A model generated the notes under the pieces. It saw only the letters and a list, made by a program, of their open reading frames with translations, did not search any database and was not told the DNA's origin. Below are positions 3,308 through 55,281 of a DNA stretch of 64,000 nucleotides, piece after piece. The position numbers and the translations under genes were made by a program. How positions within the stretch are numbered: position 1 is the stretch's first letter; the number at the start of each line of letters is the position of its first letter. The DNA comes from an uncultured bacterium (GTDB taxonomy: Bacteria; Myxococcota_A; CAZTSL01): positions 12,090 to 76,089 of the forward strand of contig CAZTSL010000002.1 in NCBI GenBank assembly GCA_964616915.1. The letters are read 5' to 3'.

Positions 3308-3379
3308 GGTCACTCCTTCGTCACACGTTTGAAAACTTGCTCCATCGTCTTCCATTCGGAACGAGGTTCCGGGTCGTTG

Positions 3380-4036: not shown

Positions 4037-4129
4037 GCTCGTTCGTCTCGTTTCCTTACCGTTCGAGGTCCCGTGGCTACACCACTCCCCTGAAGAGGTC
4101 CCATGCGTCCTGGAGTTTCCGGATCTGGC

Positions 4130-8259: not shown

Positions 8260-8882
8260 CCCCCCCGCTGCCGATCCGGGACGATCGAGATCGCCTGCGG
8301 ATAGCGGATACACGCCCGCTCGCACAGCCCACAACCGACACAGTAGGTGGGATCGAGGATCGGTTGTTCCATGAAGCCTGCGCGCAGCGCCTTCCCCTCG
8401 AAGGGACACGCCTTGACGCAGACCCCGCAGGAACTCCCCTGGTAGGAGTAACAGAGGTTCTCGTCGAGGGTGGAGACCCCCATCGAAACCTTCTCCTGGA
8501 TCGCCGCAGCGTCCTTTTCGACGGGAACGAGCGCGCCGGTGGGACAGGCCGCCGTACAGAGCAGCATCTTCCCCTGGTCCCCGCCGCAGAGGTTACAGGC
8601 TTGCAGGCGGGGGAAGATCACCGGGGTTCCGACCTCCGCCCGCCCCGGGGCCATGGAGAAGGGCCGCCCCGCTTCCCGGGTGAAGGGGCGGATCGCCTGG
8701 TTCGGACAGGCATCGCCACATTGGCCACAGCGGATACAACGGGCGAGGAATTCGTCCTCCGGGAGGGCCCCCGGCGGACGAAGCACGGCCCCCCCCGCTT
8801 CCGTGGGACGCAGGAAGCCGAAGCCCGCGGCCAGCGAGCCCGCCACCACCGTCACGTTCCGCAGGAAACCCCTGCGGCTCAT
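8256..8882 (-). CDS. NapG/MauM-type periplasmic 4Fe-4S ferredoxin with Tat signal (paralogue)
   Basis: MSRRGFLRNVTVVAGSLAAGFG (twin-arginine). CIRCGQCGDACP, CNLCGG...CTAACP, CGVCVKACP, CVGCGLCERAC. The start could be 8906. Confidence 0.75.
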   Translation of the reverse strand: MSRRGFLRNVTVVAGSLAAGFGFLRPTEAGGAVLRPPGALPEDEFLARCIRCGQCGDACPNQAIRPFTREAGRPFSMAPGRAEVGTPVIFPRLQACNLCGGDQGKMLLCTAACPTGALVPVEKDAAAIQEKVSMGVSTLDENLCYSYQGSSCGVCVKACPFEGKALRAGFMEQPILDPTYCVGCGLCERACIRYPQAISIVPDRQRGG

Positions 8883-8930
8883 CCGTCTGAACCAGGACGA
8901 TGCCATCCCCTCTGCTCCCCGGAACGCCGT

Positions 8931-38053: not shown

Positions 38054-38758
38054 TCAGTAACGCGGTGTTCCGGAGAAATCGAAGAGCTCCGGCGCCCGTT
38101 TGAGCCCGACGACCATCTCCTCGATCGCATGCTGGACGCTCTCCTCCACGAGGGGGTCGAAGAGATGGTCGTCCTGGGCCCCCTCGGGGGGGAAGGTGTC
38201 GAACTGGCGGCTCGTGATCTTCTGGCGCCAGATCGGCCGGTGCCCCAGATCGTAGAAGGTCACTTCGAGTTCGAGGAGGACGTCCCCCTTGATGCTCACG
38301 AGTTCCTTCTCCGGCGTTTCGCCCCCTCCCTGCGGATCCTTCCGGTAGAAGAAGACCACATCGAGCGTATTGCGGAGAATTTCGACGGTGAGGATCCCAT
38401 CGAGCTTCTTCTTGCGTGCTTCCTGGAGGTTGCGAACCTGGGTGGCAAACTCGAAGGCGATCTGTGCCGCGGGCTCCATCATTGCGGCAATGGCCCGTCC
38501 CACGGCGTAATGATAGACGGGGGCCTTCTTCTGCTTCTCCTCGTTTCCCTGAAACCGCGCCTGGCCGGAAAGGATGTGGCGACGCACCTCACTGGGAACG
38601 ACCACGCCAACGGTCAGCGGGATCTCCATCGTGGAGTACATCGTGGAGAAGCGGTTGTCCAGTGTCTCCGAGAGGCGGGTGGAACGGACGAATGCGCTAC
38701 ACCCCACCGTCGAGGGGAGGAGAAAGAGGCCGAGGACCAGAGCGAGGCTGCGTTTCAT
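38054..38758 (-). CDS. Lipoprotein of unknown function
   Basis: MKRSLALVLGLFLLPSTVGCSAF lipobox. Start at internal Met; the upstream extension is G/R/S-rich. Confidence 0.5.
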   Translation of the reverse strand: MKRSLALVLGLFLLPSTVGCSAFVRSTRLSETLDNRFSTMYSTMEIPLTVGVVVPSEVRRHILSGQARFQGNEEKQKKAPVYHYAVGRAIAAMMEPAAQIAFEFATQVRNLQEARKKKLDGILTVEILRNTLDVVFFYRKDPQGGGETPEKELVSIKGDVLLELEVTFYDLGHRPIWRQKITSRQFDTFPPEGAQDDHLFDPLVEESVQHAIEEMVVGLKRAPELFDFSGTPRY

Positions 38759-38810
38759 CTCCCTTCCTTTCCAGAACTTCCCCGTCGATGGCGCCCGACC
38801 CCTCTGCGCC

Positions 38811-39545
38811 TCAGATCCCGAAGAGCTTGATCGCCACCCCGGAGAGGGCGATCGCCACGCCGGCCAGGGTATTCGCGTAGCGTTCCAGCGGACCAAAGAG
38901 GGAGACCTGCAAGGCGTAGTACCCCAAGGTCACGAGAAGGAGCATCGTGCCGATCGTCACCGTCCCGAAGACGAGCGCGACCCAGAAGGTCCCCCAGGCC
39001 CCCATCGTGGCCGCAGGCACCATGAGGAGGGGAATGAGCGGCTCGCAGGGGCCGAGCACGAAGATGATGAAGAGCCCCCAGAAGGTCAGTTGCTTTCCGG
39101 AGAGCGTCGAAGCATCGTGAAGATGAGCGTGGTGATGGGGGTGGTGAGGGTCGTGGGGGTGGACATGGACGTGCCCATCGTGTTCGTGGATGTGACGGTA
39201 GGCTCGCCGCTGACGGGCAAAGGACCACCCCGCGTACGCCAGCCCGAAGACGATGAGGAGCCAGGCCGAAAGGGAACCCCGACTCGCCTCGATCGTGGTG
39301 AGCTTGGAGAGACCGATCCCAAGACCGATGCCAATGGCGCCGAGCACCACCGAGGAGAGGACGTGACCGAGACCACAGAGCGCGGTGATCGCAAGCACCT
39401 TGGTCAGCGACCACTTCCGGGCCCGGCCGAGCACCACGAAGGGGAGCGTGTGATCGATCCCGATCGCGGTGTGAAGGAGGGCGACACTCGTCGCCGTCGT
39501 CAGAAGTACGAGCAGTGTGGGTTCATTCATCGAGGAGACCTCCAT
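38811..39545 (-). CDS. NicO/NiCoT-like nickel/cobalt transporter membrane protein with His-rich loop
   Basis: Six to eight TM helices. LLHTAIGIDHTLPF (Hx5DH-type motif). Cytoplasmic loop HIHEHDGHVHVHPHDPHHPHHHAHLH. Overlaps the sodX 3' end, forming an operon with sodN-sodX. Confidence 0.65.
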   Translation of the reverse strand: MEVSSMNEPTLLVLLTTATSVALLHTAIGIDHTLPFVVLGRARKWSLTKVLAITALCGLGHVLSSVVLGAIGIGLGIGLSKLTTIEASRGSLSAWLLIVFGLAYAGWSFARQRRAYRHIHEHDGHVHVHPHDPHHPHHHAHLHDASTLSGKQLTFWGLFIIFVLGPCEPLIPLLMVPAATMGAWGTFWVALVFGTVTIGTMLLLVTLGYYALQVSLFGPLERYANTLAGVAIALSGVAIKLFGI

Positions 39546-39838
39546 GCATCCAAAGGCCCGGAACGGGGGATCCTGGCCGTGACTCTTCCGAGAAGCCGGC
39601 TCAGGGGGATCGAACCGAAGCTGCGGCTGTCGGTGCTCTCCCTCGGGTTGTCCCCGAGGAGGTGGAGACGATCCCCCCGAACCGCGGCAACCCGTTTGAC
39701 GAGCCGTACCCCGCGGCGGAAGGGATGAAGAAAGACGACGATCTCACCGGGCCGGGGCGCGCGGCGGCGATAGCAGCGGGGATCGACGAGGACGATCTCT
39801 CCCCCTTCGAGCGTGGGCGACATCGAATCACCCGACAC
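39527..39838 (-). CDS. sodX: Ni-SOD maturation peptidase SodX (truncated S26 signal-peptidase-like)
   Basis: GDSMSPTL (S24/S26 catalytic Ser box) and GDNPRESTDSR. About 100 aa, immediately downstream of sodN. Probable GTG start. Confidence 0.75.
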   Translation of the reverse strand: MSGDSMSPTLEGGEIVLVDPRCYRRRAPRPGEIVVFLHPFRRGVRLVKRVAAVRGDRLHLLGDNPRESTDSRSFGSIPLSRLLGRVTARIPRSGPLDAWRSPR

Positions 39839-39925
39839 CCGGAAGCGCCACCGCCGGCCGAGGAGCCAGAGGAGGTACTCCTTGAGATCGGCGCGCGCTA
39901 CCCGCCCGGCCGCCCGATCGGCGTC

Positions 39926-40399
39926 TCACCCCGCGGTATACCAGGCGACCTCGCGCCCCTTCGTGGCCCAGAAGATCTCATGGATCTTCTTGATCGTGTC
40001 GAGCAGTTCCTGCGCATGTTCGAGGCTGACTTCCACCTTGACCGCGGAGCAGAGTTTGGCGGCCTTCCAGAAGATGTCGTGCAGATCGGGGTACTGCTGC
40101 AGGTGGGGCGGCTTGAAGTAGTCGGTCCAGAGGACGAGGAGTTCCGTCTTGGCCAGGTGCGCCTGCGCCTCCTTGATCGCGATGTAGCGCGAGAGCGTGT
40201 TGTGGTAGGCCACGAGCGCCTTGGCATCCCCCGGATCGGGGGGCGTGAGATCGAGGATCTTCTTCGTCATCGAGAGGACCGCTTCCGCGGCGATTCTCGC
40301 CGAGGCGGGGTCGTAGACCCCACAGGGACCGTCACAGTGCGCCTCCACACGTTCCGCGGGAAGCCGATGCAGGAGTCTCTCCGTCAATTTCTCGAGCAT
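39926..40399 (-). CDS. sodN: Nickel-containing superoxide dismutase precursor
   Basis: Leader MLEKLTERLLHRLPAERVEA followed by Ni-hook HCDGPCGVYDP. Four-helix-bundle length of 157 aa. RBS GAGGAG. Confidence 0.9.
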   Translation of the reverse strand: MLEKLTERLLHRLPAERVEAHCDGPCGVYDPASARIAAEAVLSMTKKILDLTPPDPGDAKALVAYHNTLSRYIAIKEAQAHLAKTELLVLWTDYFKPPHLQQYPDLHDIFWKAAKLCSAVKVEVSLEHAQELLDTIKKIHEIFWATKGREVAWYTAG

Positions 40400-41272
40400 G
40401 GTCGATTCTCCTCTCTTGCAGGGGTAAGGACGATCACGACCTCCGCCCGGAGCGGAAAGGGAAGATGCGCGTCATTGGCCACACAGCCACGGAACCGACG
40501 GCCACGCGGTGAAGTCTCCATCCCCATCCCTCCATGAGGGAGGCGTGGTGCAATTCCTGGAAAGAACGCCCAATTCTAGTCGAGATCCCCGGTATTGTCA
40601 ACCAGCCCGAATCTCATCGCCCAGGGCAATCGCATCAAATTTCCCGATAAGATCTGCAATCCCGTAGGATCTCGAAAGCAAGGGAGTTCCCACATGACAG
40701 TCGCCGCTCTCCACGGCGTCTGGTCGGTAATGCGTTCCACCCCTTTCGTGCCCGATGCTCCGATACCATGCGGATTCCGCGAATCATGAGGATTTTCAAT
40801 GCGATTGCCCTGCCGCCTCATCAAAAAAACCTTGACCGCTCCGATCGAAGCATGCTATCGTAACCTTCCGTCGCTCCCAGGGGAAGGGCATGACGAGGGG
40901 AGCAGGACGAAAGGGAGCGACTCGAGCAGGACGAAAGGGGACGACTCGAGCCTCGCCTCGGAAGGGGAGCCGACAGAACGAGGCGGCACAAGGGAAGGGG
41001 GAAATGCACGCAACGTCGGAGAAGGATGACAGGAAAAGGGGAGAGGAGGAGCACTTCCGGAGACGGCCGGGATGGGGTTGGCGCCATCCCCGCCTCAAGG
41101 CCACCCTCGCCTTCCTTACGCTCCTCTTTGCCGTCCATCTCCTCTTTCTCCTCCACTTCCTCCTCTCCCGCCACAGTACCCCTGTTCCGACTCCCCTCTC
41201 CGCTTCCCCCCTCTCCCTGATGCAGGGACGCGGGTAGCGCCGGCATCCTTACCGCGGGAGGAAGAGCGTTTC

Positions 41273-43618
41273 ATGCACGTCCGGATACGCAACCTTTGGG
41301 CTCTGGGGTGCGGTGTGCTCCTCTTTTTCTTTTTCGCTGCCGGCGAACTTCGGGCCCAGGGGCAACCCCACCAGACGATCCTCCTCCTCGATCATTCGAA
41401 GAGCATGAAGGGGAACGATCCCTTCTTCCTGAACCACTTCGCCGCCCACCTCCTCGTCGATCTGGCGGCCCCCCGTGACGAGATCGGCATCTTCGACTTG
41501 CAATCCTCCGTCGTTCCGATGGATCCGGTCGCGGGGAGGAAAGAGGCGCTCCATGCCGCCATCGACCACCTCTCCTATGGGGGGAAAACCCCCTGCGCGA
41601 CCCCCCTTTCCCGCGCCCTTACGGAACTGAAGGAGAAACAACGGCCGGAGGCGCTTGCGAGTATCGTCTTCCTCACCGATGGGGTCTGCGACGAGGACGA
41701 TCCGATCGAGAAAGCGCTTCCCGCGCTGCAAGCGGCCAGGATCCCGGTCTTCACGATCGCGCTGGGGAAAGAGACGGAACATCGCCGGCAGTTGCAGCGG
41801 CTCGCCGAGCAGACGGGAGGAATCCCCTTCGCCGTGACGGACGCGGCGGATCTACCGGAGGTCTTCGCGAAACTCGCCGGCCGTCTCCATGGGGCGGAGT
41901 ACCAAAGCGGCATGCTCGCCCGTGGAGAACAGATCTTCGCCGCCGCCCCCTACCTCGAACGGATCGTGCTCCTCGCCGCGGGGAAGGTCGAGACGGCCCG
42001 TTTCTTCGGGCTCCATTCCCCCACCGGTCCGGTGGCCCTCGATGGGAAGAACGCCCGCATCCGCTCCTTTGCGAACCACCGTCATCCCAACGCCCCCGAG
42101 GTCTATACGATCGTGGAGATTCCGGAACCGCCCCCCGGAGAGTGGCGCTACGAGGTGGAAGGGAAAGAAGAGAAATTCTCCGTGGCCGTGATCCAGATCT
42201 TCGACCTCGTCCTCTCCCTGGAAGGGCATCCGCAACGGGTCGAGGGGAAGGAAACCGTGGAACTCGTGGCCCGGCTGGCAACCTCCCGGGGAAGAGTGCC
42301 CGATCCCGCGTTCCTGCGGCAGGTTTCGGTGACCCTCCATCACCGCCCCCCCGGCGGCGATTTTCAGCGTTGGGGTCCCCTCCCCTTCGACGGGAAAGGG
42401 GCGTTCCGCACCCGTCTTTCCCTTCCGGAACCGGGGGAACACGTCTTCTACGCCGTGGCGCGCTACCAGCAGCATCTGAACCGCCGCAGTCCGCTTCGCT
42501 CGATCGAACGCCTGGAGCCCCCCCCCGAAGGGTGCCGCCTTCGCTTCCTCGAGGCCGAGGCGTGCCATCGGAAGGGGGATGTCCCCTTCCCCGTGAGCGT
42601 GCGCCTCGAATGCGCCCCTCCCCAGACCCTCTCCGCGGCCTACCAGGAAAGCTGCACCGGCCGCCTCTTTGCCCAGTCCCCCGGGGGAGAGGGCTTTGGC
42701 GAGGTCGCATCCTTCTCGTCGGAGCCGGGAGGACGCTACACGGCCCTCGTAACGCTGCCCGAGGAGGGGCATCACCGGCTCCAGGCCCGCCTCGAGTGTC
42801 CGAACACCCGTTTCGTCTCCGGAACGAGTGATCTTTTCGTGGGGGAACTCCCCCCCCTTCTCCCGCTCGATTTCGGAACACCGGAGGGGGGGAGCGTGGC
42901 GACCCGAGGGATCGATCTTTCCCCCTGGCGTCCCTTCCTTCCCCTCGACATCACGTTCCGGCCGGAAGCGCTCACCGGCCCTTCGGCCGCATCGATCGCG
43001 GTCGATGCCGACGGAGCCGGTGGACTCCTCGCCACGCTGAAGATCGCGGGGTGCCGCTCCGAGGGGGAAGGGAACGGGGCGATCGCGATCGTCCCGAAGG
43101 GGTGTCTCTCTCCCGTCGCGCTTCCCGTCTCCTACACGGTCCACCCCACCCCCTTTCTCGCCTGCTATCGGCGGATCTATCTCGGGACGCTGGCGCTGCT
43201 CGGGGGCGCTTTCCTCCTCTACGGATTCCTCTCCCCCCCGGCATTCTCCCCCCGCCGAACGATCTGCTGGAGTGCCTCCCGGCAGGGGTGCGTGGAAAGG
43301 GACCCCACCGCCGCCACGGAGGTGCTCTTCGGGGCGTTGCATGGCCACGGGAAGGGGCGGCGTCGCTGGTATACCCCCGCCCGCCTCTACTTCGGCGGTC
43401 CCGACGACTTCCTCGGACCCAAGGGGGAAACGCCCGTGGCCTGGCTCGAAGCCACCCGCTCCGGAATCCTCCTCGTCACCCTCCAGCCGGGACAGACCTT
43501 CCTGTGCACCGAGGGGGGAGGAGAAGAACCGATCACGATGCAGGCGACCCCCCTCCATTACGGCACCGTCTACCGCGTCGATATCGGGGGTGAACACCGC
43601 TATTTCGAAATCCACTGA
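41273..43618 (+). CDS. Membrane-spanning von Willebrand factor A (vWA/MIDAS) domain protein, 781 aa; first gene of the vWA-tubulin-like cluster
   Basis: Start MHVRIRNLWALGCGVLLFFFFAAGELRAQG (signal/anchor). MIDAS LLLDHSKSM (DxSxS) plus VFLTDG. Second TM IYLGTLALLGGAFLLYGFL near residue 700. C-terminal about 130 aa tail. Confidence 0.8.
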   Translation: MHVRIRNLWALGCGVLLFFFFAAGELRAQGQPHQTILLLDHSKSMKGNDPFFLNHFAAHLLVDLAAPRDEIGIFDLQSSVVPMDPVAGRKEALHAAIDHLSYGGKTPCATPLSRALTELKEKQRPEALASIVFLTDGVCDEDDPIEKALPALQAARIPVFTIALGKETEHRRQLQRLAEQTGGIPFAVTDAADLPEVFAKLAGRLHGAEYQSGMLARGEQIFAAAPYLERIVLLAAGKVETARFFGLHSPTGPVALDGKNARIRSFANHRHPNAPEVYTIVEIPEPPPGEWRYEVEGKEEKFSVAVIQIFDLVLSLEGHPQRVEGKETVELVARLATSRGRVPDPAFLRQVSVTLHHRPPGGDFQRWGPLPFDGKGAFRTRLSLPEPGEHVFYAVARYQQHLNRRSPLRSIERLEPPPEGCRLRFLEAEACHRKGDVPFPVSVRLECAPPQTLSAAYQESCTGRLFAQSPGGEGFGEVASFSSEPGGRYTALVTLPEEGHHRLQARLECPNTRFVSGTSDLFVGELPPLLPLDFGTPEGGSVATRGIDLSPWRPFLPLDITFRPEALTGPSAASIAVDADGAGGLLATLKIAGCRSEGEGNGAIAIVPKGCLSPVALPVSYTVHPTPFLACYRRIYLGTLALLGGAFLLYGFLSPPAFSPRRTICWSASRQGCVERDPTAATEVLFGALHGHGKGRRRWYTPARLYFGGPDDFLGPKGETPVAWLEATRSGILLVTLQPGQTFLCTEGGGEEPITMQATPLHYGTVYRVDIGGEHRYFEIH

Positions 43619-43742
43619 AAGGCAATGGGGGCAATGGAGAGAGCCACCATGCAAGACGCACCGGGGAGAGCCAACGAACGAGATCTCCATCGCAACGCGG
43701 GGAGCATCCTTTTCCCACGGCAGCCATCAGGAGGAATACGCC

Positions 43743-46700
43743 ATGGCCGATCAGATCTACCCGACCTTCTTCATCGGACTGGGGGGAACCGGGGGTAAGA
43801 CGGTAAACCGGATCGCCAGGAAGTTCAAGACGAACTGGAACTACGAGACGCTGCGCAACTCCGTCGCCTTCTTCACCTTCGACACCGACCGTAGCGATCT
43901 CGAAGGGTTCAGCGACATCCCCAAGGAAAACCGTTTTCTCCTCCACATCCCCCGCAAGAAGGAGTTCGTGGATCGCGTGCGGGGCGCGGGCTACCTCGAC
44001 CCCGATCCCTTCTACACGAGCTGGATGCACCCCGACTACGGCTTCCACATCGAAGGAGGAAAGGGCGCCGGGCAGATCCGGATCGAATCACGCCTCACCT
44101 TCACCTACCGGATCGAGCATCCCGACCTGCAGCTTGGACATCGGGACATCCTCCGCGCTTTCCAGGACGCGATCGGCAGGGCACTCGATCCGGACAACAA
44201 CGCCACGAGGCGGCAGCCCGCCTACTTCCAGATCTTCTGCTTCGGTTCGATCGCCGGGGGGACGGGGAGCGGATCGTTCCTCCCCCTCGCCTATACCCTT
44301 CAACACCTCCTCCAGGAGCGAGGATGGGAAACGATCACCGCTCTTTGCCTCTTCGATCCGGAGGTCTTCGAGCCGGAGGTCCAGAACGCGCTCAAAAAGG
44401 ACATCCAGGCCAACGGCTACGCTGCGCTCATGGAGACGGACCACTTCATGCGCCTTTCGGCCGAGGGGGGACATCACTCCCTCCCGAAGAAGATCCGGTT
44501 CCATACACGGAAGGCATGGCCCCGTCTCGTCGATCGCGCCCCGGCCACGATCGTGTACCTCTGCGGAATCCCGAAACATTTCTCGATGGAGAAGATCGCC
44601 TCGATGATCAATGCCGTGGCCGATGCGAGCTACTTCCAGGTCTTCTCTCCCCTCCTCGGTCTCCAGGAGGCCGAATCGGTCAACTTCGTTCGACATCAGC
44701 TCGGGCTCGTGCAGCAGGTCTTCTCCGCCCACTACGGCGCCTTCGGCTGCTGCCTCCTTCACGTTCCGGATGAAGACATCCTCCTCTACTGCGGCCTCCG
44801 TTTCGCCGAGACGGCCCTGCGCCGCTACGTCCTCCTCGAAGGAGAGGTCGAACTCCTCGAGGGAGAGGGGGAAGAGAACCTCTCCGAGGAGGAGAAGGCC
44901 GACGCCGAAGACGAGCGCTTCTGCTTCTGGATCGACCGGAAGGCGGAAGAGGAAGTACGGGATCGAAAGAGGGAGGGCATCTTCCAGAAGATCCGGGGGG
45001 GGCGCCTCCCATCGGGAGAAACCCTCCAGGAAGTGATCGAAGCCGCGGTCGCCGAAACCCTCCAGGAGATCCCCCAGGCGATCCGCCTCAGCCGTCTCTC
45101 CACGAACGACCTCTCGGAATACCGCTACGGCCTCGATCCCTACCGGAACCGACTCGTCGAAGAACTCGCGGAATCGAAGGCCCGACTCCAACGCCATCTG
45201 CGCACCGTCACCTACGACATCGCCAACGGAACCTTCCTCGGCCGCATCTTCAAGGGCTGTCAGGCCGATCCCTTCATGCAGCGCTATGCCCTCATCGATC
45301 TCAAACGGAGACTCAGAACGGCGATCTCCGATGGACAGGAGCCCAGGAATCCCGACGACCCCACCGCATCCGCGGTCATCGATCGGCTCCGCTCCTGGGA
45401 GGACGAACTGGCCCGAACCGCACCCTATACGATGAAGGAGCGTCTCTTCCAGCGAGAGAACCGCGACTTCATCGAGACGAGGGAGCAGGCGGTCGCCGAC
45501 TTCAACCGCGTCGTCGAGGCGAATCAGCGGGCCATGGAAGCCCATGCGAAACGGGAGATCGAGGAGGCCCTCTTCCACCAGGTCATGGAACGACTCCGTG
45601 CCTTCCGTACCCTCATGTCGCTGGGCAAGGCGCTCGTGGAGGAACTGGAAGAGGAAGCCGACCGCTTCCAGCGCTCGGGCGTGCCCCCGGAGGGAGAATC
45701 GCAGGCCAACGCCTTCTTCCTCGACGAGGAGGCGCTCCAGGACCTCGAGGGCAACCGCCTCTGGAAGACCTTCTACGAAGCGGAGATCGTCCCCAAGGAG
45801 GTCGAACTCTTCCAGCCCGCCGAAATCTTCGCCGCCATCGAGGAAGCCTCCGCCCCCCGCCTCGATCCCCGGGGAAGAACCCAATCCCCCACACCAGAAG
45901 AGGTCCGCCGCGCCCTCAAGGCGAAACTCGTCCAGCTCGGGTGCAAACGCTTGCGCCCCCGGATCGTCGGCATGGAAAGGAATGTCGCCCCCCGCGATCA
46001 ACAGGGCCTCCTCATCGACGAAGCCCTCCTCCTCGAAGCGAGGTTCGTCCTCGAAAAGCGCCAGAAGGCCGGCGAAATCCTCTCCTTCGGCCCCGATGAG
46101 ATCGCCGCGTACATCCGGGAGAAGCTCGGCCATGCGAAACGGAGAAGCGGGCATCTGGCCAAGATCGAGAATCTGGAGGACCCCGAGGTGAAGCCCTGCC
46201 CGATCTCGCTCGTGGCCTTCCACGAATGCTACCAGGAGGCCCTTCCCCACCAGAACGGCTCCCTGGCCGATCATCTCCGCGAGATCTCTCCCGAAGGACG
46301 CTGGGTCGAAAACTGGCACGACCGCAAGCGGATCGTCTTCTACCAGGCCACCCTCGGCGTCCCCCTCTTCTATTTCCCCTACGTCCGAAAGACGCTGCGT
46401 CAGGCATACGAGGAACTCGACGCCAAGGGGGTCAAGGAGCGAGGCTATCCCCTCCATATCGACGCCGCCTTCGAGAAGCGGCTCTGCCCCCTCACCCCCG
46501 AAAGACTCCAGGAGTTCCTCGCCCGCAGCCTCGAGGAACGCGTCGCCCCCCGCTTCGTCCTCGGTACCCTCGCCGGCATCGTCTCCCACCAGGACGGCGC
46601 ATACCACTGGAAATTCGGCGAAAGATGGGGGGACACGCTCGGAAGTGATCTCTCCCAGGCCCTCCGGACCTACGACGCACTCGAGCCCGCGATCGCCGAA

Positions 46701-46925
46701 CGGATCTCCCGCAAACTCGAAGAGACCGAAAGGCGTCTCAAGAGCGATCCACAGCTCCGCACCGCCCTCGAAGCCCTTCGCACCACCTACGAAGAAGCGA
46801 TCCTCGACCGGAAATTCCCGAAACGACAGCTACAGGACGCCCAGACGGCCCGGATCGACGAGATCCCCATCCTCGAGAAACTCAAGAGCGCCTGTGAGGA
46901 TCTCCTCCAGAGCACGAGCGCGTAG
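43743..46925 (+). CDS. FtsZ/tubulin-superfamily GTPase with about 700 aa C-terminal extension (1060 aa); not a canonical cell-division FtsZ
   Basis: T1 loop YPTFFIGLGGTGGKTVNRIARKF (compare FtsZ GGGGxNAVNRM). T4 / tubulin signature FCFGSIAGGTGSGSFLPLA (GGTGSG). Charged, coiled-coil-like E/R-rich C-terminal region. Confidence 0.8.
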   Translation: MADQIYPTFFIGLGGTGGKTVNRIARKFKTNWNYETLRNSVAFFTFDTDRSDLEGFSDIPKENRFLLHIPRKKEFVDRVRGAGYLDPDPFYTSWMHPDYGFHIEGGKGAGQIRIESRLTFTYRIEHPDLQLGHRDILRAFQDAIGRALDPDNNATRRQPAYFQIFCFGSIAGGTGSGSFLPLAYTLQHLLQERGWETITALCLFDPEVFEPEVQNALKKDIQANGYAALMETDHFMRLSAEGGHHSLPKKIRFHTRKAWPRLVDRAPATIVYLCGIPKHFSMEKIASMINAVADASYFQVFSPLLGLQEAESVNFVRHQLGLVQQVFSAHYGAFGCCLLHVPDEDILLYCGLRFAETALRRYVLLEGEVELLEGEGEENLSEEEKADAEDERFCFWIDRKAEEEVRDRKREGIFQKIRGGRLPSGETLQEVIEAAVAETLQEIPQAIRLSRLSTNDLSEYRYGLDPYRNRLVEELAESKARLQRHLRTVTYDIANGTFLGRIFKGCQADPFMQRYALIDLKRRLRTAISDGQEPRNPDDPTASAVIDRLRSWEDELARTAPYTMKERLFQRENRDFIETREQAVADFNRVVEANQRAMEAHAKREIEEALFHQVMERLRAFRTLMSLGKALVEELEEEADRFQRSGVPPEGESQANAFFLDEEALQDLEGNRLWKTFYEAEIVPKEVELFQPAEIFAAIEEASAPRLDPRGRTQSPTPEEVRRALKAKLVQLGCKRLRPRIVGMERNVAPRDQQGLLIDEALLLEARFVLEKRQKAGEILSFGPDEIAAYIREKLGHAKRRSGHLAKIENLEDPEVKPCPISLVAFHECYQEALPHQNGSLADHLREISPEGRWVENWHDRKRIVFYQATLGVPLFYFPYVRKTLRQAYEELDAKGVKERGYPLHIDAAFEKRLCPLTPERLQEFLARSLEERVAPRFVLGTLAGIVSHQDGAYHWKFGERWGDTLGSDLSQALRTYDALEPAIAERISRKLEETERRLKSDPQLRTALEALRTTYEEAILDRKFPKRQLQDAQTARIDEIPILEKLKSACEDLLQSTSA

Positions 46926-46963
46926 GGACGGCCAGCAGGGCGCCATGGCCCATCGAGTCTGGA

Positions 46964-49450
46964 ATGGAGCACCTCTTCATGATTCCGAACCCCACCCTCC
47001 TGATCGCCGGAGGAACGATCGGTAGAGACGTCACCGAGGTGATCGAAGCAGAGATCGAACGCCTCGCCCACTTCGGCCTGATCGAAGGACGTGAACGCTT
47101 CGACACCTTCCTCCCCGAACCGAATGGAGCGATCACCGAGGGTCTGCGCCAGCGCCTCGATCTGAACCTGAGACGCTGGGATGTACAGTTCCGAGAGCGT
47201 CCCAGCGACCGCCAACAGATCGATCTCTTCTTCGTGGCCGACCTGGCCGACCCGGAGATCACCCGGGCCTGGATGACGGCGGTGATCGAGGGGATCGAGG
47301 GATTTCTCGAGAGCATCCCCCGCCTGATCGAGGGGGGGTGCGACGTCCTCCTCCTTCCGATCCTCGTGCTCCCCCTTCTCCGCAAGCGTGGGGACCTCGA
47401 AGCCGCCGTTCCCCTCCTTTCGTTCCGCGACCGGCGCAGGGGCTGCGCCCCCATCTTCCTCATCGAGAACCAGAGCGCGAAGTTCACGATGCGTCCCGAG
47501 GAACAGGCGGATCTCGTGGCGACCTTCATCCGTCTCCTCGTCTTCGGAAACCTCCGGTATCACGAAGGGTTGCGGCGGATCTTCGAGCATCGTAGCGGGG
47601 ATCCCTTCGGGACGTTCATGATCGAGAGCGCCGAGCTTCCCACGGTCGAGGCCTTCGCCTACTGTGCGGACCGGTATGCCTGCGAGATCCTCGCCCGCGT
47701 CTCTCCGGTCAAGACCGCGGAGGGGGGAGATCTGTCGGTAACCGCGCCCTCGGGCCTCTCCCGCCCCGACCCCGCCACCCTCCACGAGGCCCTCGTGCGG
47801 CAACGGGAATGGGGGTCGCTCGAGGCACATCTGCGGGATTTCTGCGCAAGACTCCTCCCCGAGTTCCGCTTCCGCCCCGTAGGCCTCCTCGAGCCTCGGG
47901 AACGCGTCGCCGCCTTCTATACCCCCCACTGGCACGAAGCCAACCTCGAACGCCTCGACACCGCGCTCGATCGGAGCGAATACCTCCTGATCGACGAGAG
48001 CATCGCGGTCGTCGAAAAACGGGGCATCGCCACCCTCCTCGATGCGGTTCGCGATCTCGCCGCAACGATCGACCGGCGAATCGGCGTGCGAGAGGAGGGC
48101 GCAGGCGCACGGAAGCCGAAAGAGGCGCCGGAACCGGATGAAGGGGTCCATCGCTGCCGCAAACGGGTCGAACGCTTCGCCAGGGAGATCGCCGCGGAGA
48201 AGGGTTCGGCGCATCGCCGTCTCGAGCGCTTCCCCCCCCGCCCCCGCTGGGAGGCCTACCGGCAGGGCTACGAGGAACTCTGCGATGCGATCGCGGCCAA
48301 ACCCCGTTTCTCCACCCTCTGCTTCTTCGGCCTCCCCCTGGCGTTCCTGACGACCCTCTTCTCCGCTCCCCTCCTGGCGCCCCTCTTCGAGCGTTTCTCC
48401 GCTGCACTCGGGATTGAGCGTTCCTTCCTCTCCCATACGGCGGCTGCGCTCCTCACCCTTCTCCTCCTTGGCTATCTCGGGCATCTCGTCCTCGAATGGG
48501 GATGCGCCCCCCTCTACGACCTGATCGGTGATGGTTCTTCGCTGACCCAGAGGAAGGCTCCCGGCCGTCTCGGCACGATCCTCCAGAGGAGTGTCCTCTC
48601 GAAGGGGGGGGGACTCCTGGGCCATATCTGGCACCGCGTCTCCTTTGCCCGGGACCTCTGGATCATCCGGATCGAGGGGGCGCTCGAACGGCGGGTGCTG
48701 CGGGAGCGGGACGCCCTCGAACACCTGGAGCGCAGCGCGATCCGCCAGGGAGAGGGAATGCGCCGCAGGCTCGAGGAACGCGGCGCGCGCCATCTCGAGG
48801 GAGGCGCCTTCGATCCCACCGGTATCCGGCTTCCCGAAACGACGCTCCGGAGGTTCCTCTGTCCCCCCCGCTTCTTTCCCCGTCTCTACGAGGGGGACGA
48901 TCCTCCGGACCCGATCGAGGGGGAACGCGAGTTCCGGCGGGAATTCTTCTCCCCGCAATGGCGCCATTTCCCCCCCTATGCCGATCCCGGTCTCCTCGAT
49001 GCGTTCGCCCGGCGTCCCTTCCGTTCCGTCGTGACCGGTGAACGTTTCTCCCTCGACCCAGAGATCAAGCGCCATGTCGCTGCGGCGTTCGAGACCTTCT
49101 GTAACGAGACGCAGCGTCTCTCCCTCCCCCTCGAAATCGTCGAACACCGCGACCCGGATGGTTTCCGGGGGATCGAGGTCACGCTCATCCCCCCCGCCTT
49201 CTCTTCATTCTCGGAGCGCGGAACGGCGCGGGAGGAAATTTCGATCGAGGAGCCGAATCGTACCTATCGACTCACCGTCGTCTATGACATCGATGAGGCG
49301 GCATTGCCGGTCGAAGGGGGAGGAGAGACCGCTTCCCTTCCAGGAGGCGCGAGGAGGGATGCCGCGGAGGGTCGATCCGCAGGGGAAGGGGGAGAGATCC
49401 CCCCGGCCAAGGGGGGAGGGCCGATTCCTCTCCGGAGGAAGGAATCGTGA
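46964..49450 (+). CDS. Large uncharacterised protein (828 aa) with two central TM helices; N-terminus possibly a degenerate second tubulin/FtsZ-like fold
   Basis: MIPNPTLLIAGGTIGRDV (GxGGxG-like) ... GGCDVLLLPILVLPL. TM segments FSTLCFFGLPLAFLTTLFSAPLLAPLF and AALLTLLLLGYLGHLVL. 38-nt gap after the tubulin-like gene. Confidence 0.5.
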   Translation: MEHLFMIPNPTLLIAGGTIGRDVTEVIEAEIERLAHFGLIEGRERFDTFLPEPNGAITEGLRQRLDLNLRRWDVQFRERPSDRQQIDLFFVADLADPEITRAWMTAVIEGIEGFLESIPRLIEGGCDVLLLPILVLPLLRKRGDLEAAVPLLSFRDRRRGCAPIFLIENQSAKFTMRPEEQADLVATFIRLLVFGNLRYHEGLRRIFEHRSGDPFGTFMIESAELPTVEAFAYCADRYACEILARVSPVKTAEGGDLSVTAPSGLSRPDPATLHEALVRQREWGSLEAHLRDFCARLLPEFRFRPVGLLEPRERVAAFYTPHWHEANLERLDTALDRSEYLLIDESIAVVEKRGIATLLDAVRDLAATIDRRIGVREEGAGARKPKEAPEPDEGVHRCRKRVERFAREIAAEKGSAHRRLERFPPRPRWEAYRQGYEELCDAIAAKPRFSTLCFFGLPLAFLTTLFSAPLLAPLFERFSAALGIERSFLSHTAAALLTLLLLGYLGHLVLEWGCAPLYDLIGDGSSLTQRKAPGRLGTILQRSVLSKGGGLLGHIWHRVSFARDLWIIRIEGALERRVLRERDALEHLERSAIRQGEGMRRRLEERGARHLEGGAFDPTGIRLPETTLRRFLCPPRFFPRLYEGDDPPDPIEGEREFRREFFSPQWRHFPPYADPGLLDAFARRPFRSVVTGERFSLDPEIKRHVAAAFETFCNETQRLSLPLEIVEHRDPDGFRGIEVTLIPPAFSSFSERGTAREEISIEEPNRTYRLTVVYDIDEAALPVEGGGETASLPGGARRDAAEGRSAGEGGEIPPAKGGGPIPLRRKES

Positions 49451-52290
49451 AGGAACTCCTCGAAACCTTCCTGGCCTGGTTCGTCGCTTTGACGATGAGC
49501 GGCACGTTCGGTTTCGTGCTCGCCTTCGGCGGCGGGCTGCTGGGCGCCCTGCTCCTCGTCGGCCTGGTCTGGCTCCCCTCCCGCGGGCGCACGCGCCCGG
49601 CCGGCGGGATCGCCTGGGCGCTGGGCACCGTCTCTTTCCTCGGGATCTTCCTCCTCGGCCTCCTCGTCGATCTCCTCCTGGGGGGGGAACTCGAAATCCG
49701 GACGATCGGGCGCCTCCCCGTGCTCGCGAAACTCGTTCCCCTGGCCCACGTTCCCCGGGTTGCCCTCCCCCTCTACCAGGCCCTCTTCCTCCTCGTCGAT
49801 CTCCTCATCGTCTGGGGGGTGTGGCGGATCGTCTGCGCGGCCGATCACCGGGGGGCCTTCGCCGGTCACCCCTCGATCGGGCTCACCGGTCGTCTCGATC
49901 CGTGGCGGATCGATCCCTCCTTCCGGCGGTGGTTCCGCTTCGTGGCGTGGGGGTGGAGTCTCGTGGTCGTGATCGCCTTCGTGGGGATCGTGCGCAAGAG
50001 TTTCCCCCTCTCCCCAGCCTCCTGGGTGGCGGGGGAGATCTTCGCCCTGGGGGCCCTGGCCACCCTCTACGCCCGGGGGAAGGCCCCGGTCGAGGCCGAG
50101 GCCGAGGAACCGGAGGAGGATACGGAGCAAGCTCCGGCCGTCCCCTCCCCCCTCGACAAGCTCGAGCGCCTCCTCGACGAGGCGGGCTACGAGATCCGGG
50201 AGCCCCGACGCGAACTCGATCCCCAACGGGGTGTCGAGGGGCGGGTTCCCTTCACCTCCCCCCTCCTCCAGGAGTTCTCCCCTCTCCTCTTCGGCGGTCC
50301 TCCCTGGCAGCACCAGGAGGCCGGGGTCGCGCGCCTCGCCGGGATGCTCGCCGAAATGCACGACACCCCCCAACGGGAAGCGGCGCTGCTCCTGCAGGGG
50401 GCCTACGGGAGCGGACGCAGCACCCTCCTCTTCGCCCTGGCGCTCACCGTGGCCCTGGAGGTGAACCGGAACGTCCTCTTCATCGAGCCGGATCGGACGC
50501 GGGCAGCGGGACGATTCAAGCGCTTCGACACGGTCGTCCGGCGTTCGAGCCTCCGATGGAGCCTCCCCCGCTCGCTCGATTCAGCGCTCGAAGAGGCTGG
50601 CGCCGGCAAAGGGGTCGATCTCTTCGCCGAGGGGCGCATGCCCCTTCTGCGTCTCACGACCCCTCGGGAACTCGAACACGATCTTTCCGAGGCAACACGG
50701 GGGGACCCACAGCAGACCGCCCGGCTACGCCGCGCCTTCCACGAGGCCCTCTCCCTCGTCGTCGTCGATGACGTGGATGGCTATGCCCCGGAAGCGTTGG
50801 CGGAACTCGGGCTCCTCCTCCACCGCCTGCGGCTTCGCGTTCGGCAGGAACAAGCGCGGCAGATGTCACTCGTGGTCGCGCTTTCGGCCAGGGCCGGTTT
50901 CGGGGTGGATGCGGTCCGGATCTTGACGGGGATGGAGCGGATCGAGATGCTCCCCTGCACCGCTGCGCCGCAGTGCAAGCGGCGGATTCGATTCCTCTTC
51001 CCCACCCGTCCCGATCCGCACCCCCTCTCCCGACTTCCCTTCCACGAGGCGGGGATCCGGACCTATGCGACCTGGGATCTCGACGCGCCCGCCCCCTTCT
51101 CCTTTCCGGAGCGTCACCCCCCCGTGGGTACCCTCTTCGAATCCCCCCCTTCGCTGCAGCCTCCCCCCCCGGTCTCGGAGGGGAGTGCTGCGGGGGCCTG
51201 TGATCCCCTCCGCGCAGAGGTCACCTTTCTGACGGGCGGTTTTCCCCTCTTCGATGTCGTGGAAGGGGAGAGCCGGCACTTCGGGAGCGTATCGGGGAAG
51301 AAGATGCACGGGGTCTTCCACCTCGTCTCCCCCGATCCCCTCTCCGAGGCGCTCCTCGATATCGATATCCCACGGGTGGCGCGGACCTTCCGCCCCTTCC
51401 CCTTCGACGAGGCGCGGGTCACGAAACACCTTCGCCGCTGCGAGCCCGCCGCGGCTTCCACCCTCCGGGAGATCTTTGGGGAGGCGCGCGTCGCGGCGTT
51501 CCTCGAGCGCTTCCCCGCCGCAAAGGTTCGGGAATTCTGGGATCTTCGGGAGGATCGTCTCGTGCGGGACACCTGGATCGATCCAACCCTCCTCCCGCCC
51601 GAAAGGGGGGGAGAAGGGGAACCTTGGACGCGCGGCCTCGAGGGCGTGATCGCGCATCCCCCCGAGGGGATCGCCCCCCTCCTCGTGCCGGGGCGGATCG
51701 TCGGCAAAGGGCGGGAGGCCTTCCTCCTCGAGGAGGCGGGACGGCTCACCCCGCACCCGACCCCCACCTTCACCCGGCCGATACGCAGCGTCTCCCTCCA
51801 CGACGCGGAGGTCCTCTGGCGAAAGACCCTCACGCTCCGCCTCGAGGAAGAGGAGGTGACGCTCACCGCGGCGGAGGTGGTGGGGGAGATCGAAGAGCAG
51901 ATCTTCGGGATGCGCCGTCACAGCGCGGATGGCGTACGTCTGGGGGAAGAGCGCTTCGAGTCGCCGATCCCCTTCCGCAGACGGGGACATGCCCTCCAGC
52001 TCGAAATGCCGGTCAAGGGGGTTCGCTCGGCCACGGCCTTCTCGCTTGCGCTTTCCCTCCTCTCCCCCCTCTCCGAAGATCTTCTCGATGCCGCCTTCAT
52101 CCCGGGGGGGGTCCTCCTCTTTGGCCGGGTTTCCCTCGACCTCCTGGCCCCCTGGCGGAGCACCGAGGCCCTCCGGGAACTCGTCGCCCTTTCACGCTGG
52201 TTGACCGAACGGGCGGTCAGGGCACTCGACGATTTCGCCAAGGACCTTCCCCACTCCCCAGACGAAGCCCGGGACCGGTCTCAGGAATAG
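49447..52290 (+). CDS. Membrane-anchored protein (4 N-terminal TM) with atypical P-loop NTPase-like domain (947 aa)
   Basis: GTG start overlapping the upstream stop (translational coupling). Four hydrophobic helices. Walker-A-like [18 protein letters not shown] (Arg in place of Lys). Walker-B-like [11 protein letters not shown]. Confidence 0.55.
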
Positions 52291-53087
52291 CTGTGTTCCT
52301 CCCCCGGGAAGGCCCCCTCCTTGACCTCTTCCACGTAGTGCCGGACCGCCTTGGTGATCACCTCACTCAGGTTCGCGTAGCGCTTGACGAATTTCGGGGT
52401 GAAGCCATCGAACATGCCGACGAGATCGTGGAAGACGAGCACCTGGCCGTCGCAGTGGAGCCCGGCACCGATCCCGATCGTGGGGATCGAGAGGCTCTCG
52501 GTGATCTCCCGGGCAAGGTCGCCAGGCATCCCCTCGAGGACGACGGAGAAGGCGCCGGCTTCCTCCACGGCCCTGGCATCCTCGAGGAGGCGTTGCCGGG
52601 CCCCGTTGCTCCGTCCCTGCACCCGGAACCCACCGAAGCGGTGGATCGATTGGGGGGTGAGCCCGATGTGCCCCATCACCGGCACATCCATGTCGGTGAT
52701 CGCGGCGATCGTGGAGGCCACGTTCCGCCCCCCCTCGAGCTTGACCGCCTGGGCTCCCGATTCCTTGATGAGGCGAAAGGCGCTGCGCTTCCCCTCCTCC
52801 ACGGAGTTCTGGTAGGAGCCAAAGGGCATGTCCGCCACCACGAAGGCCCGCGTCACACCGCGACAGACCGCCTTCGTGTGATAGATGATCTCATCGAGCG
52901 TGACGGGGAGGGTATTCTCCAGCCCCTGGATGACCATGCCGAGCGAATCGCCCACGAGAAGCATATCGACGCCACAGGCATCGAGAATCCGTGCCGTCGG
53001 GTAGTCGTATGCCGTAATCATCGAGATCTTCTCACCTTCTCGCTTCATCTTGCCGAAGTCGAGGATGGTTCTTCGTTTTTGCTGCAT
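52281..53087 (-). CDS. panB: 3-methyl-2-oxobutanoate hydroxymethyltransferase (ketopantoate hydroxymethyltransferase)
   Basis: [32 protein letters not shown]..., [24 protein letters not shown]. Start at internal Met 53087. Confidence 0.85.
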
Positions 53088-53677
53088 CTGTCCTTCCTTC
53101 TCCCCTTGCCCCGCCGGCGCTGTGCGGAGACACCGGAAAGGGGCAGGGGGAATCCGGTCGTTACCGTTCACCCCTTCGGGATTCGCTTCCCGCAAACCGG
53201 GATCGCGATGACGAAGGTGTTCTCCTCCCCCCTTCCCCCCGTCCCACCCGGGACGACGGCCCTGAAACGCACCGGTGGGAGGAGATGCGCGCTTTCAACT
53301 GTGCGTTTCTCGACAAGGCATGATAACCCAAGGGGGAGGGAACGATCAAGTACCCGCAGGCGCTACCGGTCCAACCCCGTGCAGTCCATCTCCTTGCCCG
53401 GAGATCCGGGTATCCCCCGATCCCCGATCCGCCGTGATCGTTCATGGAGGCAACACCGACGGGGGGTAACAGCCGGGTACGGTTAACAGGGGCAACCCCG
53501 CTCGGGGAGGAAAGATCGAGGAATGCCGAGAGAAAGAAGAGGGAACGGAAGTTGCTTTTCCCTTGTCGAGAAAGGGGAATGCTCGGAGAAACGAAGCACC
53601 CCGAGCAGGGATGAACGGATCCTCGAGGGCCAAATCCCTCCCCTGACGCCACGATCACGAACTTCAGGAGGCATAGA

Positions 53678-55170: not shown

Positions 55171-55281
55171 GGTGTCAGGCCGCGGGCTTCCGTTTCGCAG
55201 GGGGCAGGGGAGCGTTCCGCGTTCATCCGATCGATGCCGGCCAGGTGTCAGGCCGCGGGCTTCCGTTTCGTAGGGGGCAGG
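55171..55281. repeat. 38-bp direct repeat (two copies, about 35 bp apart) duplicating the 3' coding end of the FHA-histidine-kinase gene into the intergenic region
   Basis: ggtgtcaggccgcgggcttccgtttcg(c/t)agggggcagg at 55171-55208 and 55244-55281. Copy 2 encodes the C-terminal ...LPLLPPTKRKPAA of the kinase. Confidence 0.7.

Follow-up and report, generated by a model that had tools for sequence, protein, structure and literature searches.

FtsZl1 proteins were described by Makarova & Koonin (2010, PMC2875224) as proteins of about 1050 residues with a divergent N-terminal tubulin domain, a coiled-coil and a helical C-terminal domain. Most of them are encoded in predicted operons with a von Willebrand factor A (vWA) protein of COG2304 that has an intact metal ion-dependent adhesion site (MIDAS). 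Their other partners include kinases, a novel GTPase, OmpA-like proteins and lineage-specific membrane proteins, and a role in membrane remodelling was proposed (PMC2875224). Tubulin plus vWA operons of Firmicutes and Actinobacteria were later recast as GAP1-N2 GTPase-centric conflict systems (Kaur, Burroughs, Iyer & Aravind 2020, PMC7159879). Here we analyze a cluster of four genes at positions 41273-52290 of a 64,000-nucleotide stretch of contig CAZTSL010000002.1 (the whole stretch is called the window below). To an earlier note on this DNA, the combination of a tubulin, a vWA protein and an Arg-for-Lys P-loop looked undescribed. The pairing of a tubulin with a vWA protein has in fact been the defining context of FtsZl1 since 2010 (PMC2875224), with the conflict reinterpretation following in 2020 (PMC7159879). 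What is new with respect to the literature searched is the addition of a membrane pseudo-tubulin and of a membrane-tethered YprA/MrfA relic, which makes the cluster a distinct FtsZl1 variant. All the evidence for this four-gene system is computational.

The four genes are:

41273-43618, plus strand: gene 1, vWA protein, 781 aa
43743-46925, plus strand: gene 2, FtsZl1/Tubulin_2 GTPase (predicted), 1060 aa
46964-49450, plus strand: gene 3, putative membrane pseudo-tubulin, 828 aa
49447-52290, plus strand: gene 4, predicted polytopic membrane protein with a degenerate YprA/MrfA-type superfamily 2 (SF2) helicase, 947 aa

The description of these co-directional genes as an operon-like unit was confirmed. 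Genes 1 and 2 are separated by 124 nt, genes 2 and 3 by 38 nt. Genes 3 and 4 share a GTGA, in which the GTG start of the latter runs into the stop of the former, and through this overlap the two are predicted to be translationally coupled. Shine-Dalgarno-like sequences (GGAGG/AGGAGG) are found upstream of genes 1, 2 and 4. The G+C content at third codon positions is 0.77-0.83 in all four frames, and the G+C content of the whole window is about 65%. Independent gene calls on a Logan contig of the same DNA gave proteins of 781, 1060, 823 and 947 aa, gene 3 starting 5 codons later in that call (823 instead of 828 aa). The same DNA is also present in NCBI fragments of a metagenome-assembled genome (MAG) labelled "Deltaproteobacteria bacterium", with locus tags D6795_*. 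The motifs quoted in the earlier note (DHSKSM, GLGGTGGKTVNRI, AGGTGSGSF, IAGGTIGRDV, GSGRST and VVVDDVD) are all present in the translations.

Gene 2 matches Pfam Tubulin_2 (PF13809), the model found in the "FtsZ-like" proteins that Makarova & Koonin described in 2010 (PMC2875224), with an E-value of 4.8e-43 and 148.2 bits (gathering threshold 27), over profile positions 2-355 of 356. The tubulin-like domain covers residues 10-359 (43770-44819). Both GLGGTGGKTVNRI and AGGTGSGSF lie in this protein, and loops T1 (GLGGTG), T3 (GAGQIRIESR) and T4 (AGGTGSG) are intact. The three loops are invariant in 35 full-length relatives, as are G12, G14, G15, G17 and A171-G177. The AlphaFold2 model (pLDDT 85.7) displays a tubulin domain at residues 8-363, followed by a long helical/coiled-coil region with extended helices (574-645, for instance) and by an alpha/beta domain at the C-terminus. 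No transmembrane (TM) segment was predicted in gene 2. When this model was compared to the PDB with Foldseek, the top 50 matches all belonged to the tubulin superfamily (CetZ2, TubZ, alpha-, beta- and gamma-tubulin, BtubA). Homologue searches detected 463 proteins, many of them full-length at 28-36% identity. Sequence and model together assign gene 2 to the FtsZl1 family with a tubulin/FtsZ fold, as the earlier note had proposed for the fold, and the intact loops suggest that it is apparently an active GTPase.

Gene 2 was also considered as a division FtsZ and this identity was rejected. Indeed, PF00091 scored 17.7 bits (threshold 33), FtsZ_C was not matched and no genes of the division and cell wall (dcw) cluster are nearby; the earlier remark that division genes are missing holds for the whole window. 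Division FtsZ proteins have about 350-450 aa and a dcw/ftsA context, whereas gene 2 has 1060 aa.

The second tubulin-like component is gene 3, for which two regions were delimited:

46988-47701, plus strand: N-terminal tubulin-fold domain of gene 3 (predicted), residues ~9-246
48308-48526, plus strand: TM helical hairpin of gene 3, residues 449-521 (from the model)

Gene 3 had no matches in Pfam, NCBIfam or PADLOC, and a full HMMER scan of 1.84 billion representatives returned 15 matches only. The earlier note had suspected a degenerate second tubulin-like fold in this protein, and family-level comparison supports the suggestion: hhalign of the gene 3 and gene 2 family alignments gave a probability of 94.5% (E 7.7e-8) over the whole Tubulin_2 domain, while eight other domain pairings, used as a control, gave at most 1%. 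Plain BLASTP of gene 2 against gene 3 detected no similarity, and profiles and structure are needed to reveal the relationship. An over-iterated gene 3 hidden Markov model (HMM) drew in all gene 2 open reading frames (ORFs); the profile was therefore rebuilt cleanly with domain-wise controls, and this clean family profile matches five gene 2 ORFs and nothing else. A leave-one-out family HMM recovers the gene 3 of the window with an E-value of 8e-52. The structure model was built from 14 homologues only, and its agreement with tubulins in Foldseek is qualitative and below significance. The model has a tubulin-fold head, a helical stalk, the TM hairpin and a C-terminal domain predicted to be cytoplasmic, a topology that would leave both ends of the protein in the cytoplasm. 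One or two hydrophobic helices near residues 430-540 recur in nearly all of the 52 family members. Altogether, profiles and model indicate that gene 3 is a membrane-anchored, tubulin-fold paralogue of gene 2.

The two paralogues differ in their putative nucleotide loops. Gene 3 has a T1-like AGGTIG loop (IAGGTIGRDV in the translation), and most of the 52 family members retain a T1-like P[TS]hLhGLGxFG motif. Its T4 position reads ADLADPE, and the GGGTG[ST]G signature is absent there in all 52 of 52. Since the T4 loop is lost, GTP binding is improbable, and gene 3 probably cannot bind this nucleotide. The cluster has in common with heteromeric tubulins (alpha/beta-tubulin, BtubA/B, Asgard AtubA/B) and with gamma-tubulin caps that two paralogous tubulin-fold genes of unequal nucleotide chemistry adjoin each other; a heterodimer of the two products would be putative, and the identity of gene 3 to any tubulin is at most 15%. 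Unlike these proteins, gene 3 has no T4 signature, and would lack the nucleotide loop rather than hold a non-exchangeable GTP; moreover, it is predicted to be an integral membrane protein. The GTPase-fold head, long helical stalk and hydrophobic hairpin are also reminiscent of bacterial dynamin-like proteins, an analogy only, drawn by ourselves from the model. The head of gene 3 is of tubulin and not of dynamin/TRAFAC type and is predicted to be inactive, and no homology is implied. Separately, the helical bundle and hairpin of gene 3 (residues ~320-600; 47900-48750) gave weak Foldseek matches to the ClyA-family alpha-pore-forming toxins AhlB, SmhB and MakA, with probabilities of 0.2-0.6 and very high rmsd, which may correspond to generic long-helix similarity.

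Gene 1 was described in the earlier note as a bitopic vWA protein with an intact MIDAS, and both the Pfam match (VWA, E 2.3e-11) and the hydropathy profile agree with this. Its parts are the following:

residues 5-23, plus strand: N-terminal signal/anchor sequence of gene 1 (hydropathy)
41375-41872, plus strand: vWA domain with the MIDAS motif DHSKS, residues 35-200
43175-43231, plus strand: TM helix, residues 635-653 (hydropathy)
43232-43615, plus strand: conserved tail of about 128 aa, predicted cytoplasmic

The MIDAS motif reads DHSKSM in the translation, and its Asp and Ser, together with T106 and D136, are invariant or nearly so in the family alignment. About 430 residues of predicted extracytoplasmic sequence separate the vWA domain from the TM helix and contain Cys594 and Cys631, which are invariant in the family. 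A signal sequence was found in 28 of 37 family members, one TM helix recurs, and the cytoplasmic tail has 115-128 aa in 33 of the 37; the leave-one-out family HMM recovers the gene 1 of the window with an E-value of 8e-76. The signal sequence, the conserved cysteines and the single TM helix thus argue for export of the vWA domain, with a cytoplasmic and folded tail that may contact cytoplasmic partners. An FHA-like fold for this tail was considered and dropped, no Pfam FHA match being found in the window protein and 36 relatives (E 0.1 and 0.01).

The following parts were predicted in gene 4:

49447-50091, plus strand: about five TM segments of gene 4, residues 1-215
50314-52056, plus strand: helicase-like region, residues ~290-870
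50407-50424, plus strand: motif I, GSGRST (Arg for Lys)
50767-50778, plus strand: motif II, DDVD (VVVDDVD in the translation)

The GSGRST and VVVDDVD motifs stand as the earlier note gave them, while its count of four TM helices is replaced by about five segments. Taken alone, gene 4 gave only a sub-threshold nSTAND5 P-loop match and neither Pfam DEAD nor MZB; the nSTAND5 identity was rejected as a sub-threshold, P-loop-only match, and YprA/MrfA was preferred. In the gene 4 family, Pfam MZB (MrfA Zn-binding, formerly DUF1998) was found in 24 of 42 members and DEAD in 16 of 42. The family profile matches Bacillus subtilis YprA/MrfA (PDB 6ZNP) with an E-value of 1.3e-22, the alignment covering the motif II-RRL segment and the C-terminal MZB region (PGGxG...CxC..GC..C). 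Therefore the RecA/KaiC-like or SIMIBI fold expected for gene 4 in the earlier note gives way to an SF2 helicase of the YprA/MrfA family. A leave-one-out family HMM recovers the gene 4 of the window (E 8e-37), and an N-terminal hydrophobic block of 3-7 segments (median 5) is present in 42 of 42 members.

The helicase motifs of this family are eroded. Motif I GxGR[ST]T and motif II DD[VLA]D are common to one subclade, to which the window belongs, and other subclades have DLPDPTE or DxCGQxE. The canonical motif I Lys (GxGK[ST]) is kept in only one of the 42 relatives, and motif II is not DExH. The Arg-for-Lys P-loop is thus no peculiarity of this protein but a lineage trait, fixed in the whole subclade. 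A four-Cys Zn cluster is present in many relatives, and no Cys occurs among the last 75 residues of the window protein. The sequence evidence identifies gene 4 as a putative membrane-anchored relic of a YprA/MrfA-type SF2 helicase. It shares the motif II-RRL and MZB alignment with the helicases of this family (MrfA 6ZNP; DrmA/B, DruE, DpdJ, ARMADA). It differs from them by its N-terminal domain of about five TM segments, by a motif I that, with a single exception among the members, reads GxGRT or is unrecognisable, by a motif II that is not DExH, and, in the window, by the lack of Zn cysteines and of an associated nuclease. With PADLOC v2, gene 4 gave only mad8 (E 0.013), and genes 1-3 gave no matches; DruE models were weakly matched by 3 of the 42 gene 4 relatives. 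The text of a 2025 YprA census mentions neither a membrane-anchored gene 4 clade nor an association with tubulin.

A helicase-derived protein beside a tubulin raises the question of DNA handling in the manner of TubZ/PhuZ, with a filament positioning or tethering DNA at the membrane via gene 4. TubZ and PhuZ are indeed among the structural matches, and gene 4 is derived from a DNA helicase, MZB being kept in 24 of 42 relatives. However, TubZRC type III partition systems differ from this cluster, which is chromosomal and rare on plasmids and phages: no small helix-turn-helix (TubR-like) gene lies in the operon and no centromere repeats were found beside the genes. The eroded helicase motifs also count against DNA handling, and an exported vWA partner would have no obvious role in it. 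We regard this reading as very improbable.

Conservation of the cluster was assayed by scanning one genome from each GTDB species (185,579 species genomes) for a pattern, which detected at least 503 gene 2 relatives; 80 loci were kept, and the counts below are restricted to loci with enough flank. Word-indexed homologue searches with genes 3 and 4 returned nothing, or only the query itself, and plain phmmer with these two genes gave few matches, all directly downstream of the tubulin gene. Homologues of genes 3 and 4 were found by iterated HMMs on the loci fetched via gene 2, each locus giving one match, with strand and order unchanged throughout. A gene 3-type gene adjoins gene 2 in 54 of 64 loci, or 58 of 64 when a divergent subfamily (cluster 22, hhalign 97.3%) is included. 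A gene 4-type gene lies downstream in 47 of 57 and a vWA gene directly upstream in 41 of 69, often as 2-4 tandem paralogues; all three partners are present in 33 of 52 loci. The core of the subtype, as predicted from these sequences, is one or more vWA genes, a tubulin-like GTPase, a membrane pseudo-tubulin and a membrane-anchored YprA/MrfA-like pseudo-helicase. Its carriers are mainly Myxococcota and related MAGs, with others among Acidobacteriota and Chromatiaceae.

This recurrence bears on two deflating explanations, namely that the four genes are neighbours by chance, or that gene 2 is simply the sole, divergent division FtsZ of the organism. The absence of dcw genes from the window would fit the latter, the analysis having covered the 64-kb window and an 18-kb contig of the MAG, with no FtsZ in the window. 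Against both, the gene order recurs in dozens of genomes from several phyla, which effectively excludes chance adjacency, and gene 2 is a Tubulin_2 protein without FtsZ_C. FtsZl1 proteins also typically co-occur with a conventional FtsZ in the same genome (Makarova & Koonin 2010, PMC2875224). Together these explanations are hardly credible. Relatives of the cluster are present in myxobacteria. These bacteria have a canonical FtsZ.

The related loci vary around the common core. Recurrent accessory genes encode Ser/Thr kinases (26 loci), PP2C (14 loci) and FHA proteins (13 loci), and the recurrent neighbour clusters, of which representatives were scanned, are Ser/Thr kinases, PP2C, FHA and Big_5 proteins or unassigned. 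In one deltaproteobacterial MAG, independent gene calls and Pfam gave Tubulin_2, a 792-aa protein and then a 962-aa DEAD/MZB protein. The operon of Pyxidicoccus parkwayensis (CP071090, locus L084) comprises FHA, vWA-FHA and PP2C proteins, unassigned proteins (739 and 695 aa), Tubulin_2, a protein of 789 aa, a MZB protein of 920 aa and a pair of Ser/Thr kinases. A Mrr_cat-ResIII-DEAD-Helicase_C gene (L084 22907-23225) abuts this 10-gene FtsZl1 operon, a single case. The four loci whose gene 2 is closest to that of the window (L003, L004, L043, L058) come from Bradymonadales-like MAGs and, together with L082, have a different layout: a Big_5 Ig-like protein is encoded upstream, gene 3 is shorter (~620-655 aa), gene 4 is absent, and a vWA gene and a Ser/Thr kinase follow downstream, with a MoeA gene inserted in L082. 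In four loci from Acidobacteriota/Thermoanaerobaculia (L052, L054, L064, L067; ~700-9950), four tandem gene 1-type vWA paralogues lie upstream of the tubulin gene, and two conserved unannotated genes (clusters 5 and 12) lie downstream of gene 4. FtsZl1-type systems are nearly absent from plasmids (4 records) and phages (1 contig). Tubulin_2 proteins are encoded on the Thermus/Meiothermus megaplasmids NC_019387, NC_014213 and NZ_CP021131, annotated there as "tubulin-like doman-containing protein", and on an unannotated 9.8-kb "Bacteriophage sp." contig, MT836542.

Compared to the FtsZl1-vWA operons of 2010, the locus shares the architecture of gene 2 (GGTGSG tubulin domain, coiled-coil and C-terminal domain), the adjoining membrane vWA gene with a MIDAS, the lineage-specific membrane proteins downstream and, in relatives, the Ser/Thr kinases and FHA proteins. 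It lacks the partner GTPase and the OmpA gene. The partner families listed in 2010 (GTPase, OmpA-like, A1-A2, B1-B9) are exemplified by genes of archaea, actinobacteria, clostridia and cyanobacteria (PMC2875224). The closest arrangement in that work is the Plesiocystis pacifica neighbourhood (Additional file 5, PMC2875224), with vWA, FtsZl1 and then an unlabelled hypothetical protein of about 900 aa. The gene 3 family bears no label there and its paralogy to tubulin went unrecognised (PMC2875224), and the 2010 neighbourhood tables contain no helicase/COG1205 partner (PMC2875224).

The GAP1-N2 systems likewise combine a tubulin protein that has a C-terminal coiled-coil/helical domain with membrane vWA proteins whose vWA domain is extracellular. 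Two tubulin genes (in the Firmicutes version), a predicted membrane-proximal action and enrichment in social or multicellular bacteria are also shared. However, these systems are defined by a DO-type TRAFAC GTPase with zinc ribbons, GAP1 and a FNIII-repeat protein, and none of the corresponding Pfam domains (DO-type GTPase, GAP1, FNIII) was found in the four proteins or their flanks. They are stated to be confined to Firmicutes and to Actinobacteria, and have no YprA-type helicase (PMC7159879). The second tubulin differs too, being here a putative TM-anchored pseudo-GTPase. The earlier note had likened the cluster both to divergent FtsZ-like families linked to membrane proteins and to vWA-based ternary conflict systems. 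The first likeness is borne out and the second is not: a MoxR-vWA ternary system was rejected, no AAA+/MoxR match being present in or beside the cluster. Literature searches combining DUF1998, tubulin and vWA, or tubulin, von Willebrand and anti-phage, retrieved no such paper.

The cluster is a member of the FtsZl1/vWA systems, and we favor, with moderate confidence, a reading in which its four proteins form one envelope-spanning complex, directing a localised membrane or envelope assembly in response to an external cue. In this complex, the vWA/MIDAS domain of gene 1 would bind an extracytoplasmic ligand or envelope component in a metal-dependent manner, and its tail of about 120 aa would report to the cytoplasmic side. 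Gene 2, as a soluble GTPase, would assemble in a GTP-dependent manner onto gene 3, which would act as a non-catalytic membrane seed or partner fixed by its hairpin, in formal analogy to a gamma-tubulin cap or to the inert partner of alpha/beta-tubulin. Gene 4 would anchor the complex to the membrane a second time, and its helicase core would probably still bind nucleotide or nucleic acid, though with poor hydrolysis (Arg for Lys), so that gene 4 may act as a switch, sensor or tether and not as a motor. In relatives, Ser/Thr kinase, PP2C and FHA proteins would gate the assembly. In the window, this could be done by a sensor kinase with FHA, GAF, HisKA and HATPase domains (Pfam), encoded about 3 kb downstream of the cluster (55248-56933, minus strand). 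FHA-GAF sensor kinase homologues are found at the same relative position in L003, L004, L043 and L058, the four loci with the closest gene 2, and in L082 a FHA-GAF-HD protein occupies it; on this linkage, the kinase may regulate the four-gene system.

Several observations weigh against this complex. T6-H7 polymerisation elements were not identifiable in FtsZl1 (Makarova & Koonin 2010, PMC2875224), so that filament formation is hypothetical, and a conserved T7-like catalytic acid was found neither in gene 2 nor in gene 3. Residue 275 of gene 2 (44565-44567) is a Gly, where 34 of 35 full-length relatives have the Asp of a Y-L-x-D-[KR]-P motif, and it is followed by Ile instead of Lys/Arg; if the Asp of the relatives is catalytic, gene 2 of the window could be impaired. 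The role of gene 4 is the weakest link, both the canonical Lys and the Zn-binding cysteines being lost in the window. Around 40% of the related loci have no directly adjoining vWA gene and around 18% have no gene 4, and only genes 2 and 3 are near-obligate partners. Finally, the literature searched contains no experimental study of any FtsZl1 system since 2010.

The surroundings of the cluster include:

39926-40399, minus strand: Ni-SOD gene (sodN), divergent from gene 1 across a spacer of 873 nt
40832-40861, plus strand: candidate sigma-70-like promoter, TTGACC-18-TATCGT, TG-extended (consensus scan only, weak evidence)
40900-40951, sodN-gene 1 spacer: 24-nt tandem repeat, 2.2 copies, 92% match
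41121-41174, sodN-gene 1 spacer: CT-rich tract
52281-53195 (longest ORF), minus strand: panB, convergent with gene 4

The divergent orientation to the Ni-SOD gene is as reported earlier. The spacer of 873 nt (40400-41272) is unusually long; upstream of gene 1 it reads in frame as a proline-rich extension, which is probably untranslated. An Rfam scan of the whole window gave no matches, hence no riboswitch in the long leader of gene 1, and no tRNAs were found in the window. On the strand of the Ni-SOD gene, a membrane protein resembling DsbD_2 (38811-39545) and an ORF of 280 aa without annotation (38054-38896) follow; a Pfam scan of this region (38054-40399, minus strand) gave no clear match to a SodX peptidase. 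At the other end, gene 4 and panB share 10 nt at their 3' ends (52281-52290), and no terminator-like hairpin was called between them.

The wider window corresponds to ordinary chromosome, with sat/cysC, HflX, ZnuA, an asparaginase, a molybdoenzyme, a PfaA-like synthase and HtrA, so that the context of the cluster is chromosomal and housekeeping. HflX, encoded on the opposite strand about 5.5 kb upstream of gene 1, is the sole GTPase of the window outside the cluster, and the 64-kb window contains no other ftsZ-like match. The PfaA-like polyketide/PUFA synthase (18805-28026, plus strand; 3073 aa) comprises KS-AT, four tandem ACP (PP-binding), KR and DH domains, and a C-terminal 4'-phosphopantetheinyl transferase (ACPS) domain is fused in the same polypeptide.

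The biological output of the assembly is the least certain part of the favored reading, and we hold envelope remodelling and the sensing of invaders or conflict to be about equally probable. As an anti-invader system, the cluster would use the vWA protein or the helicase relic to sense phage attachment or incoming DNA, and NTP-dependent tubulin assembly would block infection or damage the membrane, possibly via the hairpin and bundle of gene 3, whose helical part weakly resembles alpha-pore-forming toxins. We put this forward tentatively. In Firmicutes and Actinobacteria, the systems with a tubulin and a membrane vWA protein were assigned to the conflict systems, with an enrichment in bacteria that are multicellular or social (PMC7159879), and the present clade is dominated by Myxococcota. 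YprA helicases have a defence pedigree, echoed in the weak DruE matches of gene 4 relatives, and the Pyxidicoccus operon has the Mrr-ResIII gene as its direct neighbour. Evolution is very rapid in genes 3 and 4 (identities of 13-24% across families, and almost no matches in 5.8 billion proteins), and the vWA gene is expanded in tandem to up to four copies. However, the four proteins match no PADLOC system, and 110 sampled flank ORFs from 59 related loci displayed no defence-island pattern (without a matched control set), only kinases matching PADLOC models. The Pfam content of the flanks is heterogeneous and of housekeeping type, as are the neighbours in the window (sodN, sat/cysC, panB, htrA), and mobile elements nearly lack the system. 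Moreover, the cluster has no effector of nuclease, protease or NADase type, its helicase motifs are eroded and not active, and the GAP1/DO-GTPase core of the 2020 systems is absent.

The same chromosomal, housekeeping context and heterogeneous flanks would suit a housekeeping or developmental cytoskeleton, in which a tubulin scaffold shapes membrane, vesicles or envelope and the vWA protein serves as an extracellular adhesion or anchor. This reading, as tentative as the previous one, is in line with the original comparative-genomic prediction (PMC2875224). Three of the four proteins are predicted to be membrane-embedded, the layout of gene 3 has the dynamin-like features noted above, and relatives carry Ser/Thr kinase, PP2C and FHA genes. 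Gating of this kind is typical of myxobacterial developmental signalling. On the other hand, the YprA-type helicase relic is left without a role, the distribution is patchy (at least 503 matches among the 185,579 species genomes), the partners diverge rapidly, and lipid-binding or vesicle-associated domains were not identified in the proteins. A further proposal, which we consider rather unlikely, is that an active FtsZl1 GTPase and a membrane pseudo-tubulin form a heteromeric tubulin pair wired to an extracellular vWA receptor and to a silenced YprA helicase that senses DNA entry. This would represent a new, tubulin-based class of immune or surveillance systems in social bacteria.

Within the tubulin/FtsZ superfamily, FtsZl1 counts as one of the most divergent branches. 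In a large clade, it is partnered by an adjoining membrane pseudo-tubulin and by a tethered relic of the helicase family that is central to DISARM, Druantia and Dpd. This leads to testable hypotheses, namely that a heteromeric assembly forms at the membrane and that partners bind nucleotide without hydrolysis. Cultured carriers (Pyxidicoccus parkwayensis, Enhygromyxa salina and Lamprocystis purpurea) make the system experimentally tractable. The finding also links the membrane-remodelling and conflict-system literatures.

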